A DNA stretch of 64,000 nt, from positions 9,151 to 73,150 of the forward strand of contig JAGAYY010000031.1 of NCBI GenBank assembly GCA_017940265.1, in the 5' to 3' direction. A model generated the notes under the pieces. The model searched no databases, was not told where the DNA came from, and saw only the letters and a program-made list of their open reading frames with translations. Source of the stretch: Bacilli bacterium (GTDB lineage: Bacteria > Bacillota_I > Bacilli_A > RFN20 > CAG-826). This document shows, one piece after another, positions 30,886-46,503 of this stretch. Position 1 is the first letter of the stretch, and every line of letters starts with the position of its first letter. The translations under genes were made by a program, and so were the position numbers.

Positions 30886-31000
30886 AATGTCCCTCCTTCT
30901 AATTAATCACTAAGTACTCGCTATTAAGGTACTTAATAAAGTTTCATAAACCTTTTCTATGCGGTTGTAGCTAGTGAGGCGACAACGCATGTAATATAAC
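30886..31000 (-). promoter_or_regulatory. Structured 5' leader of rplU (L21-leader-like)
   Basis: Two strong hairpins on the minus strand: ATGCGTTGT...ACAACCGCAT and TAAGTAC-N11-GTACTTA. They lie directly upstream of the rplU SD, as in low-GC Gram-positive L21 leaders. Confidence 0.45.
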
Positions 31001-34565: not shown

Positions 34566-34790
34566 ATAAGATCTCCTATAAAATAAAAACGCCCTATCTA
34601 AGGACGCTCTCACGTGGTACCACCTTAGTTCGTAGAATCATCTACGCACTTCATTAACCTATTTTCGCTAGGTAACGATTCCTCCAAAGCGACCTTCATC
34701 TACTTCTTCTATCGAGCTTCCACCATCCTCGATTCTCTATGAGAAGATTTATAGATTACTCCTCTTCTTCAACGGACGATAACATTATAC
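34566..34790 (-). promoter_or_regulatory. T-box riboswitch leader of valS
   Basis: The minus strand carries the T-box sequence AACTAAGGTGGTACCACGTG (plus-strand 34605-34624). A terminator follows (GCGTCC-ttagata-GGGCGT plus TTTTTATTTT). An AGAGA box is present, and a GUA (Val) triplet sits in the GAAGAAGUAGAUGAAGG candidate specifier region. Confidence 0.85.
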
Positions 34791-40385: not shown

Positions 40386-41642
40386 TTACTTCTTTTTCTT
40401 GATTTTATCCCAATATTCTTTGAATGTTTGCTCATTCTTATTCTCTTGTGGGATATAGTATTTTCTCTTCTTTAAATCATCTGGAAGGTATTGTTGTTCC
40501 ACATAGTGATTTTCAAAGTCATGAGGATAGAGATAATGCTGTCCTTTGACCTTTGCGTCTTTACCATCGAAGTGGGTATTTTGTAAGTTTCTAGGAACTG
40601 TTGCCCCCTTACCTTGATCAATATCCATCATCGCGGTATCCACGGCGAGATAAGCAGAGTTACTCTTCGGGGCTGTAGCGATTAAAATTGTGGCGTTCGC
40701 TAAAGGTAATCTTGCCTCAGGCATACCAAGTTGAAGCGCACTATCGACACAGGCTTTAACAATAGGTATTAATTGAGGATAGGCTAAACCTACATCTTCA
40801 CTTACTGAGCATAATAATCTACGGCTTGCAGCGATGATATCTCCACCCTTTAATAGCTTAGCTAAATAGAAGATCGCAGCATCTGGGTCACTACCTCTAA
40901 GAGATTTCATAAAAGCACTTAAAGTATCGAAGTGTTTATCTTCACTTCTATCGTAAGCAATATTGGCTTTATTAACTAATTCACCAACAGCGTCTAGGTC
41001 AATAACGTTTTTACCCTTAATCGCTCCATAGACAAAGTCTAAGTTATTAAGTGCTTTACGCATATCCCCGTTACTAGCAAGGGCTAAGGTTTCTAAAGCA
41101 TCTTCTTCAATCTTAAGACCAAGTTTATCGCACGCTCTTAAAAGGCCCTCTTTGATGTCATCAACTTTTAAAGCTTTGAATTCAAAGACAGTGCAACGTG
41201 ATAAAAGTGCGGGATAGATATAGAAATATGGGTTTTCAGTTGTGGAGGCAATTAAGGTGATATCACCAGATTCTACGAACTCTAATAGAGATTGTTGTTG
41301 TTTTTTATTCAAGTATTGGATTTCATCCAAGTAGAGTAAAACACCATTACCGTTTAAGAAGCTATCCGCTTCCTTGATGACAGTCTTGATATCATCAATT
41401 GAGGCATTCGTGCCATTAAGTTTATATAAAGATAACTTTGAGTTTTTAGCGATGATATTAGCGAGTGTGGTTTTACCAACACCTGGAGGGCCATAAAAAA
41501 CCATATTGGTTAAATGATTAGCCTCAATACTTTTTCTAAAAACAGAGCCTTCGTCTAAAAGATGGTGTTGACCCACCATTTCCGATATTGATTCAGGACG
41601 TAAAAGATCCGCTAAAGGCTTTTGCATACCTAAATCATACAA
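40386..41642 (-). CDS. rarA: Replication-associated recombination protein A (MgsA/RarA AAA+ ATPase)
   Basis: Walker A GPPGVGKTTLA, Walker B LLYLDEIQ, and the MgsA C-terminal domain (DAAIFYLAKLL..GD). The track start is TTG. ATG 41627 (MQKPLADLLRP) is the likelier start. Confidence 0.9.
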   Translation of the reverse strand: MYDLGMQKPLADLLRPESISEMVGQHHLLDEGSVFRKSIEANHLTNMVFYGPPGVGKTTLANIIAKNSKLSLYKLNGTNASIDDIKTVIKEADSFLNGNGVLLYLDEIQYLNKKQQQSLLEFVESGDITLIASTTENPYFYIYPALLSRCTVFEFKALKVDDIKEGLLRACDKLGLKIEEDALETLALASNGDMRKALNNLDFVYGAIKGKNVIDLDAVGELVNKANIAYDRSEDKHFDTLSAFMKSLRGSDPDAAIFYLAKLLKGGDIIAASRRLLCSVSEDVGLAYPQLIPIVKACVDSALQLGMPEARLPLANATILIATAPKSNSAYLAVDTAMMDIDQGKGATVPRNLQNTHFDGKDAKVKGQHYLYPHDFENHYVEQQYLPDDLKKRKYYIPQENKNEQTFKEYWDKIKKKK

Positions 41643-41675
41643 GCAAATCTATAAAAATGGAATAAGAGATAACGA

Positions 41676-42275
41676 TTATCGTTGAATAGCTTCTCTTATT
41701 AAGAGAATCTCATTAGTGATTGTAGATAAAACCACAGTTGAACCTAATTCAATTAAGAAGTTCCAGCCAACAACACCAATAAGAATAAAGCCCCAGGCGC
41801 CTAAGACATCTCTACCATCAAAAATCCAATCTCTAAAGAAGATGAAACTACCGAGAATGAATAAGCCAGTGTTGATGATAGGCACGAGCGCTGCCGCTAT
41901 AGGTGTACCTATGTGAGCAGGAATCAAAGAGAATTTTCCCTTCGCGAGCTTTTTAAAGCCGTGATACACGAGCGAACTCGCAACGCCTGCTATCGTGCAC
42001 TTTAGTAAGCACACAATTACAGTGCCCACAGGTGACATTGGCATGAAAAAGCCAATTGTGGATGGTGATAATAAGGCCATAATGCCATTAAAAAAGCCCA
42101 ATATCGCTGCAGATATGGGTCCACCAACAAAGCCAGCAATGACGACAGGCACTAACGAAATGTTAATGTTTGCTGGTCCGATTTGTAAATAGTTACCGAT
42201 TAATTGGAACACAATTTCCAAAGCTAACAATAGTCCGGTAATAACGATTGTTTTAGTGTTGAAATGTTGTTTCAT
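41676..42275 (-). CDS. Polytopic membrane protein, ECF-transporter S-component-like
   Basis: About 199 aa from MKQHFNTK, with 5-6 TM helices and an S-component-like size and profile. The substrate is unknown. Confidence 0.45.
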   Translation of the reverse strand: MKQHFNTKTIVITGLLLALEIVFQLIGNYLQIGPANINISLVPVVIAGFVGGPISAAILGFFNGIMALLSPSTIGFFMPMSPVGTVIVCLLKCTIAGVASSLVYHGFKKLAKGKFSLIPAHIGTPIAAALVPIINTGLFILGSFIFFRDWIFDGRDVLGAWGFILIGVVGWNFLIELGSTVVLSTITNEILLIREAIQR

Positions 42276-42418
42276 AATTCCCCCTATAGGCCATGTAGGT
42301 CCCATGAGTACGAATTGATTATACTGGACAAAGCCGTTCTATTAAAGCAAAATATCTACACAATACAAAAAATTTGTATTATTATAAGTTTGTAGAGAAT
42401 ATCAGGATATTATAATCG

Positions 42419-43510
42419 ATGAATATTAAAAAGTTTGTAAGTAAAGCAACTGACGGTCTTTTAGATGACGTCTTCAGGCAATCATTTTTAGTGTCTGTTC
42501 TTTCTTCTTTGTGCACAATCATTGTTGGTATCGCGGCGGTTCCACACTTTATTGATGATGATTGGCCAAAGGTCATGGCTTTCATCTTACTTGGTGTGGC
42601 TATTTTATCTATGGCTATTCTTTTATTAACAATATTCGATAGAAAGCATCATTACATTTGGCGCCGTGTCTTTATGGCGGTCACAATTTTATTCTTTGGT
42701 TATCTTTGCTATGACGGTGGTCCACAAGGTTTCTTACATATTTGGATCTTATTACTTCCTGCTTTCTCTTTCATTACCTTTGGTATTTATGAAGGTTTCA
42801 TCACCGCTTTACCAGTCTTCTTAGTCATGGAGTTATTCTTCTTTGGTCCATTGCATGACTTCCTTAAATACACCGATTTAAGCGTTGACTTCAGACTTCG
42901 TATGACTCTTGTCTATTTAGTTTGTTTATTACTTGGTTTCTTCGCCGAACTTCTTAGAAGAGTGGCGGCTAAGCGTTTAAGTAGTTATACAGAGAACTTC
43001 AAATATGCTTCTATGCATGACTCCTTAACAGGTTTAGCTAACCAAAACTTACTCGCTAAATATTTAGATGATGTCTATACAAATAGAAAAGAGAATTCTT
43101 CTCTTGGTTGCTTATTCGTTGACGTTGATAGCTTTAAAAACGTTAACGATAAATATGGTCACTTATTCGGTAATGTGGTCTTAATTAGAATTGGTGAAAT
43201 CCTCTCCCAAGAAAAAGAAGCATTTGTCTGCCGTTGGGGTGGAGATGAATATGTTGTCTGCTTCGCCGATATTAGTGAAGATGTCTTAATGCGCATTGGT
43301 GAAAAATATCGCGCAGAGATTGCTGCGTGTAGATTTAAAGATTATCCAAAGTTCCACATCACTGTTTCCGTTGGTGCGGTTGTTATTAAAGTCGATGAAT
43401 CATTCAACTTAGACCACGTTCTCGATTTAGCGGATTTCGCGAATAGAACAGCGAAAAATAACGGTAAAGATAACGTTACCTTATCTAAAGCCGATCAAGC
43501 GGACGCTTAA
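42419..43510 (+). CDS. Membrane-anchored GGDEF-domain protein (variant active site)
   Basis: An N-terminal domain of about 170 aa with 5-6 TM helices is followed by a GGDEF domain: DSLTGLANQ, VDVDSFKNVNDKYGHLFGNVVL, RWGGDEYVVCF. Confidence 0.85.
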   Translation: MNIKKFVSKATDGLLDDVFRQSFLVSVLSSLCTIIVGIAAVPHFIDDDWPKVMAFILLGVAILSMAILLLTIFDRKHHYIWRRVFMAVTILFFGYLCYDGGPQGFLHIWILLLPAFSFITFGIYEGFITALPVFLVMELFFFGPLHDFLKYTDLSVDFRLRMTLVYLVCLLLGFFAELLRRVAAKRLSSYTENFKYASMHDSLTGLANQNLLAKYLDDVYTNRKENSSLGCLFVDVDSFKNVNDKYGHLFGNVVLIRIGEILSQEKEAFVCRWGGDEYVVCFADISEDVLMRIGEKYRAEIAACRFKDYPKFHITVSVGAVVIKVDESFNLDHVLDLADFANRTAKNNGKDNVTLSKADQADA

Positions 43511-44005
43511 TTACTTAAGTAAACTTGTTAAATAATCGTTAACTTCTTGTCTTGAATTTAAGATATGAACGTTAACGTTTTTATATTGTTTTAATAAAGT
43601 TTCTTCTTCTTTTCTGGTGCGCTTTTCATAATCGATTGTCCATTCGATTAATTCCACAGCGTCCTTTTTAGTTTCAACCCAAGGAATGTCATCTCTAACT
43701 TCCCCGATTCTTTCTAATATGCCTTCAATGCATTCTTCACGTGGCATCTTTAGAAAGAAGACATCTGTCGCGTATTCTAAACGTTGTTTTAATATATCGT
43801 GGTAATTTCCATCAATAATCCAGTTTTCACCTTTTAAATAAGGTAAAAGCTTAGCTTCTAACTCTTTATAGGAGATAGACTCTTTATCTTTATTCCAATA
43901 GAGATTATCCATATGGATGACAGGTAAGCCGTTAATCTCACTTAGTTTTTTTGCAAAATATGTTTTACCTGCGCCTGGACAACCTATGACCAATATTCTT
44001 TTCAT
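43511..44005 (-). CDS. P-loop NTPase, adenylate-kinase-like ('topology modulation' family)
   Basis: Walker A GCPGAGKTYFA at the N-terminus and 164 aa in length, as in FlaR-like kinases. Confidence 0.7.
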   Translation of the reverse strand: MKRILVIGCPGAGKTYFAKKLSEINGLPVIHMDNLYWNKDKESISYKELEAKLLPYLKGENWIIDGNYHDILKQRLEYATDVFFLKMPREECIEGILERIGEVRDDIPWVETKKDAVELIEWTIDYEKRTRKEEETLLKQYKNVNVHILNSRQEVNDYLTSLLK

Positions 44006-44074
44006 GTCTATAATCTTAATGTTATTGATTTAAAAATTAAAGACAAGATAGTAAAAACTGGTTATATTACTTGT

Positions 44075-44512
44075 ATGGAATTATTAACAGAACAACTTAT
44101 TAGCCTGATTGATAAAGACTTACCACTTATCACTAACTTAAGTAACGCAAGCGCTTTACTTAATAACTTAAAAGATATTAACTGGTGTGGTTTTTATATT
44201 AAAAACGGTGATAACTTATACCTTGGACCTTTCCAAGGTGATGTCGCTTGTACAGTCATTCCTTTAAATAAAGGAGTGTGTGGCAAAGCCGCGAGAGAAG
44301 CTAAAACAATTATCGTTCCTAATGTTAATGAATTCCCTGGTCATATTGCCTGCTCTAGTTTATCTAAAAGTGAAATTGTGACCCCGATTATATTTAATAA
44401 CGAAGTCAAAGCGGTCATTGATATTGACGCGCCTATTTATAATCGCTTCAATGAAAACGATCAAAAGTTACTTGAAGAACTCGCTAGTGTCCTAGCCCCA
44501 CTTTTTAAATAA
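44075..44512 (+). CDS. GAF-domain protein, free methionine-(R)-sulfoxide reductase-like
   Basis: NWCGFY...LYLGPFQGDVACTVIPLNKGVCGKAA...FPGHIACSSLSKSEIV matches the fRMsr/YebR pattern. Confidence 0.8.
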   Translation: MELLTEQLISLIDKDLPLITNLSNASALLNNLKDINWCGFYIKNGDNLYLGPFQGDVACTVIPLNKGVCGKAAREAKTIIVPNVNEFPGHIACSSLSKSEIVTPIIFNNEVKAVIDIDAPIYNRFNENDQKLLEELASVLAPLFK

Positions 44513-44567
44513 TTCTACTAAAGTAGAAAGTATAAACTCTACTAACCAATCTACCCTTTAAGAGAAC

Positions 44568-44597
44568 ACTCTACCTTATAAGTAGAGTTTTTATTTT
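44568..44597 (+). terminator. Terminator of the GAF gene
   Basis: ACTCTAC-cttataa-GTAGAGT hairpin followed by TTTTTATTTT. Confidence 0.7.
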
Positions 44598-44659
44598 ATC
44601 AGTTCACTGACCTTTATTAATTTATCTATTAAGATAACGATGAAAGGAAGGCAAAGATT

Positions 44660-45337
44660 ATGTCATACAAAGAAAATATTGAAGAAATTAAGATTCCAGA
44701 ATACACAAAAGGACAAGAAAGGTTTAACACTATTTCACACGTTATTGGTATTCCTTTAGCCTTTGTTATTTTATTTATTGGTTTATATCGCTTACTTATA
44801 AGAGCAATCGATATTACAGCTTTCCTTGGTTTATTAGTGTTTGTCATCACGATTATTGATGTTTATTTTGTTTCTAGTTTATATCATGGTACAGACGCTA
44901 CTACGTTTAATAAAAAGTTATTTAGAGTCTTAGATCACTGCACTATCTATTTATTAATTGCGGGTACATATACCCCAATATGTGTTGTTTTAATGAACGA
45001 ACATGTTGTGGGCTTAGTGATGTTACTTGTGGAATGGGGATGTGCAGTTATTGGTATTATCCTTAATGCCTTCTTCTTTAAAAGTAAGGCTATTCAAGTT
45101 ATATCTTTGATACTTTATCTAGCGATGGGCTGGCTTGTTTTATTCTGTGGAGGGTTCCTCTATATGAGTGCGATTAGCTTTGGCTTTGTTTTAGCGGGTG
45201 GAATTGTCTATTCAATAGGTGCGATACTTTACGCTGTTGGTAAAAAGAAGAACTTATATTTACATAGTGTCTTCCATGTCTTTGTCTTAGTCTCCACAGT
45301 TATCCAAGCCATTGGCGTTTTAACGATGTATTTCTAA
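44660..45337 (+). CDS. Hemolysin III / PAQR-family membrane protein
   Basis: Seven TM helices with conserved His/Asp positions (NTISHVIG, LDHCTIYLLIAGTYTP, HSVFHVFV). Confidence 0.85.
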   Translation: MSYKENIEEIKIPEYTKGQERFNTISHVIGIPLAFVILFIGLYRLLIRAIDITAFLGLLVFVITIIDVYFVSSLYHGTDATTFNKKLFRVLDHCTIYLLIAGTYTPICVVLMNEHVVGLVMLLVEWGCAVIGIILNAFFFKSKAIQVISLILYLAMGWLVLFCGGFLYMSAISFGFVLAGGIVYSIGAILYAVGKKKNLYLHSVFHVFVLVSTVIQAIGVLTMYF

Positions 45338-45341
45338 TTAA

Positions 45342-45368
45342 GAAAAAAGAGGCAAAGCCTCTATTTTC
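45342..45368. terminator. Bidirectional hairpin between convergent genes
   Basis: AGAGGC-aaa-GCCTCT flanked by an A-run and a T-run. Confidence 0.6.
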
Positions 45369-46503
45369 CATCAAATTCACTTTCAGTTTTATCAAGAGCT
45401 TTCTTCATTCTCCTGACCACTGAGTTACCTTTAGACTTTTTAACATTAATTGGTTCAAGCCCTCTAAGTTTTCTTTGCTCTTGAAGGGCTAAAGTAATTT
45501 CTTCCTTAGTGGCTTTTGGACGATCCTTACTATCTTCAGGATTAACAGTCACTTGTGGATATGGAATTTGAACATTATTCTTCTTAAATAAAAGATAGAA
45601 TTCACGTTTTAAGTCTCTAGTGACTTGGAATCTATTAGCTTCATCAGTGAAGGCAATCACTAAGAAGTCAATGGAAGAAGCACTGACATTATCAATACCT
45701 TTATACCATGGACCTTCAATGATATTAGGAACTTTAGTTTTTAAGGCTTCAACTTCTTGGATGATAAGAACTTCCACTCTTTCGACATCTTCGTTATAAG
45801 AGACTGATAAAGTCACAGAAGTGACACTTCTTAAACGAGACATATTAACGACAGTGACGATTGAACTATTAGTGATAGATTTGATGTTACCACCGAAGTC
45901 TTGTAATTTAGTGGTCTTTAGACCAACATCAACGATTGTGCCTCTAAAACCATCAATAATGACTGTATCACCGACAGCGAAATAATCATCAAAGACGATA
46001 AAGATACCACTGATAACATCTTGGATAAGAGATTGACAGCCAAGACCAACAATAAGTGTTAAAACACCAACACCAGCGATAATACCAACAACATCTACGC
46101 CCCAAACGACAAGGATGACACAAATCATCGCAATAATGATGATGTATTTGCATAAAGATCTAATTAATGCCGAGATTGTTCTGGCTTTTCTAGATTTGCC
46201 ATCAAAGATGTGAGTAATAAATGTCGCGATAAAAATAAGCGTGATGCCAATAGAGACAATAAGCATGCTAACAATCCAACGGACACCACCATCGATAAGA
46301 CTATTACCGATGATAATCCAACCATTAGCGATACCTTCGCCAAAGAACTTATTACCAAATTCATCGCCGAATACCACTCGACCATTCATTAACAAGATAA
46401 AGCCTGCTAACGAGAGAACGAATAAGATTGCGCCAACGATGAAGCTAGCTTTTTGACCTGGGGTTTTTCTTTTCCACCAGTTTTGTTTCTTTTCTTCTGC
46501 CAT
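45361..46503 (-). CDS. MscS-family mechanosensitive channel
   Basis: N-terminal TM helices and the conserved MscS beta-domain (DVISGIFIVFDDYFAVGDTVIIDGFRGTIVDVGLKTTKL). Confidence 0.9.
   Translation of the reverse strand: MAEEKKQNWWKRKTPGQKASFIVGAILFVLSLAGFILLMNGRVVFGDEFGNKFFGEGIANGWIIIGNSLIDGGVRWIVSMLIVSIGITLIFIATFITHIFDGKSRKARTISALIRSLCKYIIIIAMICVILVVWGVDVVGIIAGVGVLTLIVGLGCQSLIQDVISGIFIVFDDYFAVGDTVIIDGFRGTIVDVGLKTTKLQDFGGNIKSITNSSIVTVVNMSRLRSVTSVTLSVSYNEDVERVEVLIIQEVEALKTKVPNIIEGPWYKGIDNVSASSIDFLVIAFTDEANRFQVTRDLKREFYLLFKKNNVQIPYPQVTVNPEDSKDRPKATKEEITLALQEQRKLRGLEPINVKKSKGNSVVRRMKKALDKTESEFDGK

Follow-up and report, generated by a model that had tools for sequence, protein, structure and literature searches.

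A membrane GGDEF protein in rumen Bacilli

GGDEF domains rank among the most common signaling enzymes of bacteria, and annotation labels them all diguanylate cyclases. To our knowledge, the Hypr enzymes, defined by Ser/Thr at one site and described mainly from Deltaproteobacteria and Bdellovibrio, are the sole recognized exception. We analyzed a 64,000-nucleotide stretch of DNA from a rumen Bacilli bacterium (GenBank GCA_017940265.1, contig JAGAYY010000031.1; hereafter, the window), which encodes a membrane GGDEF protein with an intact set of catalytic residues and with changes at both published nucleotide-specificity positions. Judging from this protein and its relatives, we tentatively take it to be catalytically active, to belong to an Asn/non-Arg class of cyclases, and to be relaxed in its purine specificity.

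The gene occupies positions 42419–43510 of the window and, like the features below unless noted, lies on the forward strand. Starting at an ATG, the open reading frame (ORF) encodes 363 residues, assigned by Pfam domain search to a MASE6–GGDEF membrane cyclase. Direct reading of the sequence places a Shine-Dalgarno-like AGGA (42404–42407) 11 nt 5' of the ATG, and the promoter-like hexamers at 42355–42382 do not exceed the frequency seen in shuffled sequence. The gene is monocistronic, with a divergent ECF S-component gene upstream and a convergent P-loop gene downstream.

The N-terminal part of the protein, residues 25–182 (42491–42964), is a MASE6 membrane sensor domain with six predicted transmembrane helices. 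The Pfam match (PF20966) is weak, at 31.2 bits just over the cut-off of 27.4, and most orthologs also score above the gathering threshold. A preliminary description of the window, made without database searches, had spoken of an uncharacterized sensor with five or six transmembrane segments; the count holds, as the domain models with six, while the family does have a match in MASE6. MASE6 domains have no known ligand or signal, and a full-text search on the name returned one unrelated paper. The catalytic GGDEF domain spans residues 199–351 (43013–43471) and matches both PF00990 (106 bits, cut-off 23.8) and TIGR00254 (103 bits, cut-off 37.4). Among NCBIfam models, the generic GGDEF domain model alone passes its cut-off, with all named equivalogs scoring far under theirs.

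An AlphaFold2 model built on 24 orthologs (mean pLDDT, the predicted local distance difference test, 81.9) places helices at residues 17–46, 52–73, 75–99, 105–141, and 156–199, modeled as six transmembrane helices. The last of these, delimited by DSSP on the model (42884–43015), is a long helix that leads from the final transmembrane segment to the GGDEF domain and is presumed to be the signaling helix, by analogy with other helix-coupled diguanylate cyclases. The catalytic domain folds like solved diguanylate cyclases and like the Hypr enzyme 6D9M, and the full-length fold is closest to that of ImcA (Protein Data Bank (PDB) 8WCN), which also has six transmembrane helices (TM-score 0.62–0.64 over about 380 columns).

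Both nucleotide-specificity positions are altered

The register of the active site was set by phmmer alignment against PDB chains, which runs without gaps from DxD through KxxND to GHxxG[D/S/N]; the best matches of the GGDEF domain, to canonical diguanylate cyclases, have E-values of 1e-20 to 1e-13. In this alignment, GHLFGN stands opposite GHNIGD of IsPadC, GHVAGD of WspR, and GHLVGS of the Hypr enzyme GacA (6D9M). Asn252 (codon AAT, 43172–43174) occupies the Watson–Crick-face specificity position, equivalent to D344 of PleD and S348 of GacA. Counting back from Ser348 of GacA yields Asn339 and Tyr304, which matches the published numbering (PMC6456294). The second change is Gln209 (CAA, 43043–43045), which directly follows the conserved LTGLxN motif and replaces the Arg of the cross-dimer position (Arg537 in IsPadC, Tyr304 in GacA). 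Both residues, assigned by alignment and codon, are found in 121 of 121 orthologs.

The catalytic set is complete (D235, D237, K240, N243, D244, R272, G274-G-D-E277, K346, and K350) and invariant in the ortholog alignments, with N243 at 120/121. D235-V-D237 (43121–43129) forms the metal-binding DxD motif, equivalent to D327/D329 of PleD by alignment and codons, and is invariant among the orthologs. Asn243 (43145–43147), similarly assigned, is the sugar-face base contact (PleD N335, GacA N339). The active-site signature R272-W-G-G-D-E-Y278, read from the codons at 43232–43252, has a central Asp and a terminal Tyr (GGT GGA GAT GAA TAT at 43238–43252). The phosphate-binding pair K346 and K350 (43454–43468), with a second Lys instead of Arg, is likewise ortholog-invariant; we take these residues to be the equivalents of K442 and R446 in PleD. 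Positioned relative to the GG of the signature, E265-K-E-A268 (43211–43222) stands in place of the RxxD inhibitory site (I-site), which is absent from all variants among the 121 orthologs.

Everything that the preliminary description had said of this domain's sequence was confirmed: the Asn at the specificity position, which keeps its place under profile alignment, the terminal Tyr, and the missing RxxD site. Its comparison with Hypr enzymes proved more apt than it had claimed, since Gln209, which it missed, replaces the second Hypr determinant and the orthologs never use GGEEF. Together with Asn252, Gln209 means that both published specificity positions are changed.

The protein departs from canonical diguanylate cyclases in lacking the Asp at the PleD-344 position, the cross-dimer Arg, and the RxxD I-site, the last of which is common in such enzymes, not obligatory. 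With the Hypr enzymes it shares a GGDE[F/Y] signature and a non-Arg residue at the cross-dimer position. Judged by its residues, however, it is not a Hypr member under the published definition, as it carries Asn252 in place of Ser/Thr. The residues expected of a competent cyclase are all present, namely the metal-binding Asp, the signature with its general-base Glu, KxxND, and the phosphate-binding basic pair.

Published work gives both positions a role in nucleotide choice. In canonical cyclases, the cross-dimer Arg stacks on the guanine that the partner subunit binds, and 94% of predicted cyclases carry it (PMC6456294). [quoted passage not shown]

Conservation argues for a competent cyclase

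Across the 121 orthologs (63–100% identity), Asn252, Gln209, and the whole N-Q-N triplet are invariant (121/121), and members of the genus at just 37–38% identity still carry Asn/Gln. The nearest homologs beyond the genus are Asp/Arg. The signature is GGDEY in 64 orthologs, GGDEF in 57, and GGEEF in none; because Tyr and Phe alternate among such close relatives, the terminal Tyr is neutral, and the weight that the preliminary description gave to GGDEY as a distinguishing change falls away. Mean identity is 80% in the GGDEF domain versus 64% in the sensor.

Of 22 genomes from a single rumen Bacilli genus, 20 have the gene, and its surroundings keep a constant order: MgsA, ECF S-component, GGDEF, P-loop protein, GAF protein, HlyIII, and MscS. 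Within this block (40386–46503 of the window and the corresponding loci L130–L143), the GGDEF gene and the adjoining ECF S-component gene diverge far faster across the genus than their neighbors; in one example, the GGDEF protein reaches 74% identity, compared with 84–98% for most other genes of the block. The fast-diverging part of the GGDEF protein is the MASE6 sensor.

These data bear on whether the protein is a catalytically silent GGDEF protein, acting as a nucleotide-binding receptor or scaffold, an option that the preliminary description had raised as a degenerate receptor. Two substrate-reading residues are indeed non-canonical. Moreover, GdpS of staphylococci, likewise a membrane GGDEF protein, is not known to synthesize c-di-GMP; the present protein scores 70.6 bits against the GdpS NCBIfam model, far under its 400-bit cut-off. 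A silent protein would nonetheless be hard to reconcile with invariant metal-binding, phosphate-binding, and general-base residues or with a catalytic domain under tighter constraint than the sensor, and the protein lacks the I-site on which receptor-type GGDEFs rely. The degenerate GGDEFs of the same genome, in contrast, have lost the signature (e.g., SDDHF and EADTF). Given the catalytic residues, the conservation, the synteny, and the missing I-site, we regard a dead receptor as quite unlikely and the protein as a probable competent cyclase.

Asn-type GGDEF domains recur in other lineages

Among the 149 representatives nearest to the protein, the specificity and cross-dimer positions read Asp/Arg in 130, Asn/Gln in 13, Asn/His in 3, and are mixed in 3. 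In a tree of this neighborhood, the Asn sequences fall in one 23-member clade. The members of the wider Asn/Gln clade are all metagenome proteins without names. A wider search used DNA encoding ND[K/T]YGHLFGN, a pattern blind to the cross-dimer site, with one genome per species, and yielded 65 Asn-type domains. Their cross-dimer residue is Gln in rumen Bacilli and Leu, Ala, or His in several clostridial families, a few clostridial sequences retaining Arg or Lys. In Zixibacteria and Ignavibacteria it is Tyr or Phe within a GacA-like N[YF]RYF motif, accompanied by GGEEF.

Pooling the samples gave 488 domains with intact catalytic residues. The cross-dimer residue of the Asp-type domains is Arg in 350, Lys in 21, and another residue in 28; for the Asn-type domains, the corresponding counts are 8, 1, and 75. 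All 80 domains of a control set drawn broadly with an RWGGDEF pattern carry Asp and Arg. In the best tree, inferred with FastTree from about 170 columns of a short domain and with few supported branches, there are ten all-Asn clades, eight of which lack Arg (Q, Q/H, Y/F, L/A/H, H, and Y); the groups that branch as their sisters are for the most part Asp/Arg. In this weakly supported tree, Ser-type Hypr sequences form the sister group of the Zixibacteria/Ignavibacteria clade. The pattern is suggestive of a coupling between Asn and loss of the cross-dimer Arg, short of demonstrating one.

The proteins of the Zixibacteria/Ignavibacteria clade are about 525–555 residues long (loci L290–L358; for example, L299 and L350 in Zixibacteria, L309 and L325 in Ignavibacteria). 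Asn-type GGDEFs also occur in two cultured organisms, Acetanaerobacterium elongatum CGMCC 1.5012 (L329) and Erysipelatoclostridium sp. AM42-17 (L330); one of the two domains combines Asn with Arg and ARWGGDEFLG, and the other Asn with Leu and RMGGDEF. Our literature search found no description of an Asn-variant GGDEF, with two key papers (Hallberg 2016 and Kellenberger 2015) beyond its reach.

Substrate choice and the cyclic dinucleotide formed

In the mechanism we propose, the six-helix MASE6 sensor would pass a membrane or envelope signal down the long helix to the GGDEF domain. Homodimerization is textbook for GGDEF cyclases, and the domain, as part of a homodimer, would condense two nucleoside triphosphates (NTPs) into a cyclic dinucleotide. 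Because the I-site is missing, no product feedback would be expected. The product is the most conditional part of this proposal. The canonical Asp accepts hydrogen bonds from N1-H and N2-H of guanine and would repel N1 of adenine. The amide of Asn could either accept from guanine or donate to N1 of adenine, an ambivalence like that of the Hypr Ser hydroxyl, and loss of the stacking Arg would remove the other guanine-favoring contact. With both guanine readers replaced and an ambivalent amide in place of one, we think it most likely, albeit tentatively, that the enzyme accepts ATP as well as GTP and forms 3',3'-cGAMP, c-di-AMP, or both, either in addition to c-di-GMP or in its place.

An alternative of almost equal likelihood is an ordinary diguanylate cyclase that makes c-di-GMP only. 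The carbonyl of Asn252 would then still bind guanine, Gln209 would be tolerated, perhaps at the cost of a higher Michaelis constant for GTP, and the enzyme would be one of several sensor-specific inputs into the c-di-GMP network. Some Asn-type domains retain Arg and GGEEF and are otherwise canonical, 12% of the Asp-type domains in our sample also lack Arg, and the closest solved full-length fold relative, ImcA, is a c-di-GMP synthase (PMC10904736). Such an enzyme would, however, be at odds with the near-universal Asp of strict c-di-GMP producers (PMC9140294), which our control set mirrors, and with two tested Hypr enzymes in which restoring Asp at the specificity site drives GTP specificity (PMC6456294, PMC9140294). 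It would also leave both guanine readers changed together and fixed over deep divergence, and the same residue pairing recurring in unrelated lineages.

Relaxed purine specificity, in turn, has a number of observations weighing against it, several of which concern the rest of the genome. The assembly (1.73 Mb, 88% complete) holds 11 GGDEF, 6 EAL, and 1 HD-GYP matches together with three GEMM-I riboswitches, the inventory of cyclic-dinucleotide genes that the preliminary description had called for; neither PilZ nor a GEMM-II riboswitch was found anywhere in the genome. The earlier remark that no EAL, HD-GYP, or PilZ partner lies within the 64 kb was accurate and carries little information, the EAL and HD-GYP genes of this genome being on other contigs. 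Several of the GGDEFs are canonical, and with the EALs, an RxxK-type HD-GYP, and the riboswitches, they are what a c-di-GMP-only enzyme would be expected to join. The other signature-intact GGDEFs have Asp at the specificity site and Arg (in one case Lys) at the cross-dimer site, which makes the present gene a specialized extra in an ordinary c-di-GMP network.

The HD-GYP and riboswitch tests found no cGAMP-specific component, which likewise favors c-di-GMP as the sole product. An Rxx(Q/N) motif reportedly marks the HD-GYP phosphodiesterases for cGAMP, candidates for which are described as common in Firmicutes (bioRxiv 10.1101/600031). A cGAMP-type HD-GYP was rejected here, as the genome's sole HD-GYP reads canonical RPYK, where the mapping of the RxxX motif onto R-x-Y-X is our own reading. 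In five other genomes with Asn-type GGDEFs, 1 of 19 HD-GYPs reads RPYQ, which equals the published base rate. For the riboswitches, A20 lets GEMM-I bind cGAMP, and one clostridial riboswitch is reportedly bispecific for cGAMP (PMC6140456). All three GEMM-I riboswitches of the genome have A at the position of Vc2 G20 (contig C28, 12806–12883 and 22914–22989, both forward; contig C42, 6714–6803, reverse; loci L020, L021, and L019, respectively). We nevertheless rejected A20 as a gene-linked cGAMP reader, as relatives that lack the gene have it just as often as those that carry it: in a set of 81 relatives, A and G stand at about 27:17 within the genus and about 20:15 beyond it. Orthologous GEMM-I copies flip between A and G, and congeners that carry the gene can have G20 alone.

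Further points against relaxed specificity are evolutionary. Near the protein, the Asn/Gln pair is a clade signature, perhaps of a single origin. Two of the ten all-Asn clades retain Arg, one of them with GGEEF, so Asn alone does not force the second change. The few supported branches of the tree also matter here, as a co-evolution test with independent pairs on those branches had 1–3 pairs only and no power. As for c-di-AMP, CdaA is present in all congeners, so this messenger already has a synthase.

We also considered whether the GGDEF protein replaces a missing c-di-AMP synthase. A DAC domain was not found in this 88%-complete assembly; the candidate was rejected, as DAC is present in 22/22 congeners and 78/81 relatives. 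The missing DAC is probably an assembly gap, with the gene in the unassembled 12%.

The Asp-to-Asn change itself has a precedent that points elsewhere. In Ras-like GTPases, the analogous change switches specificity to xanthosine triphosphate (XTP), not ATP (PMC2120845, PMC2120555). This speaks against ATP use and for an active cyclase with another substrate, such as inosine triphosphate (ITP), XTP, or a pyrimidine NTP, or with a linear or non-standard product; in the same direction, Hypr GGDEFs accept further purine NTPs in vitro (PMC6456294). Pyrimidines, in contrast, have been argued to fall short of the distance between the metal and the base readers (PMC6456294), and no supporting genomic context was found. 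In addition, cells hold XTP and ITP at very low levels. We consider a substrate of this kind highly improbable.

None of the neighboring genes (MgsA, ECF S-component, P-loop kinase-like, GAF, HlyIII, and MscS) has a known cyclic-dinucleotide role. There is no RNA family near the gene, the Rfam matches in the window being only a T-box leader (34597–34781, reverse strand, 106 bits) and a ribosomal protein L21 leader (30903–30976, reverse strand, 41 bits). Elsewhere in the genome, each GEMM-I riboswitch precedes an ORF without a Pfam match. One riboswitch-associated product (P0384) has an N-terminal hydrophobic segment ending in TYAWF, which is reminiscent of SipW-dependent (TasA-like) signal peptides. 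The sole HD-GYP gene adjoins, in convergent orientation, a canonical Asp/Arg/GGEEF membrane GGDEF gene (contig C33, 1098–3034; L018 and L002), and the two may form a synthesis/degradation pair. One of the GGDEF matches (contig C31, 37371–37820; L007) has an in-frame TAA and represents either a disrupted gene or a pair of neighboring genes.

Implications for cyclic dinucleotide signaling

On a broader and more doubtful reading, Asn-type GGDEFs could constitute a second natural class of non-canonical cyclases, spread over Bacillota, Zixibacteria, and Ignavibacteria, that makes 3',3'-cGAMP or another adenine-containing dinucleotide. If so, the class would supply the missing Firmicutes synthase for the bispecific A20 GEMM-I riboswitches and the Rxx(Q/N) HD-GYPs. 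We found no GGDEF-type cGAMP synthase for Firmicutes in the literature searched, and this class, with its repeated loss of the second guanine reader, is a concrete candidate for the role. Should the product instead be plain c-di-GMP, GTP selection would require neither the "specificity" Asp nor the 94%-conserved Arg. Cultured carriers would permit direct measurement of cyclic dinucleotides.

Comparison with known systems

ImcA of Pseudomonas aeruginosa (8WCN) is the only solved full-length match, a homodimer in which a domain of six transmembrane helices precedes the GGDEF domain. Its membrane domain is needed for activity, and the enzyme makes c-di-GMP as a canonical synthase under the control of IsmP, a partner protein (PMC10904736). 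Sequence similarity between the two proteins is limited to the GGDEF domain, and no IsmP-like partner lies near the present gene.

With the canonical cyclases PleD, WspR, and IsPadC (5LLW/5LLX), the protein shares DxD, KxxND, RxGGDE, and the phosphate-binding Lys pair. It differs from them in the replacement of Asp344 by Asn and of the cross-dimer Arg by Gln, in the absence of the I-site, and in its Tyr-ended signature.

The Hypr enzymes differ from the protein in their specificity reader, which is Ser/Thr rather than Asn252, and in their sensors, which are Rec or GAF domains rather than a six-helix MASE6 domain. Bd0367 of Bdellovibrio retains the RxxD I-site (PMC9140294), whereas the protein does not, and, unlike Hypr systems, the rumen Bacilli host has no recognized cGAMP riboswitch or phosphodiesterase. 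One homolog from a Geobacter metagenome-assembled genome reads S/Y/GGDEY and one from Bacteriovoracaceae S/Q/GGDEF. For the rest, Geobacter GacA (GSU1658, 6D9M) and Bd0367 have the same fold and catalytic machinery as the protein, GGDE[F/Y] with a central Asp is common to both, and the changes fall at the same two specificity positions.

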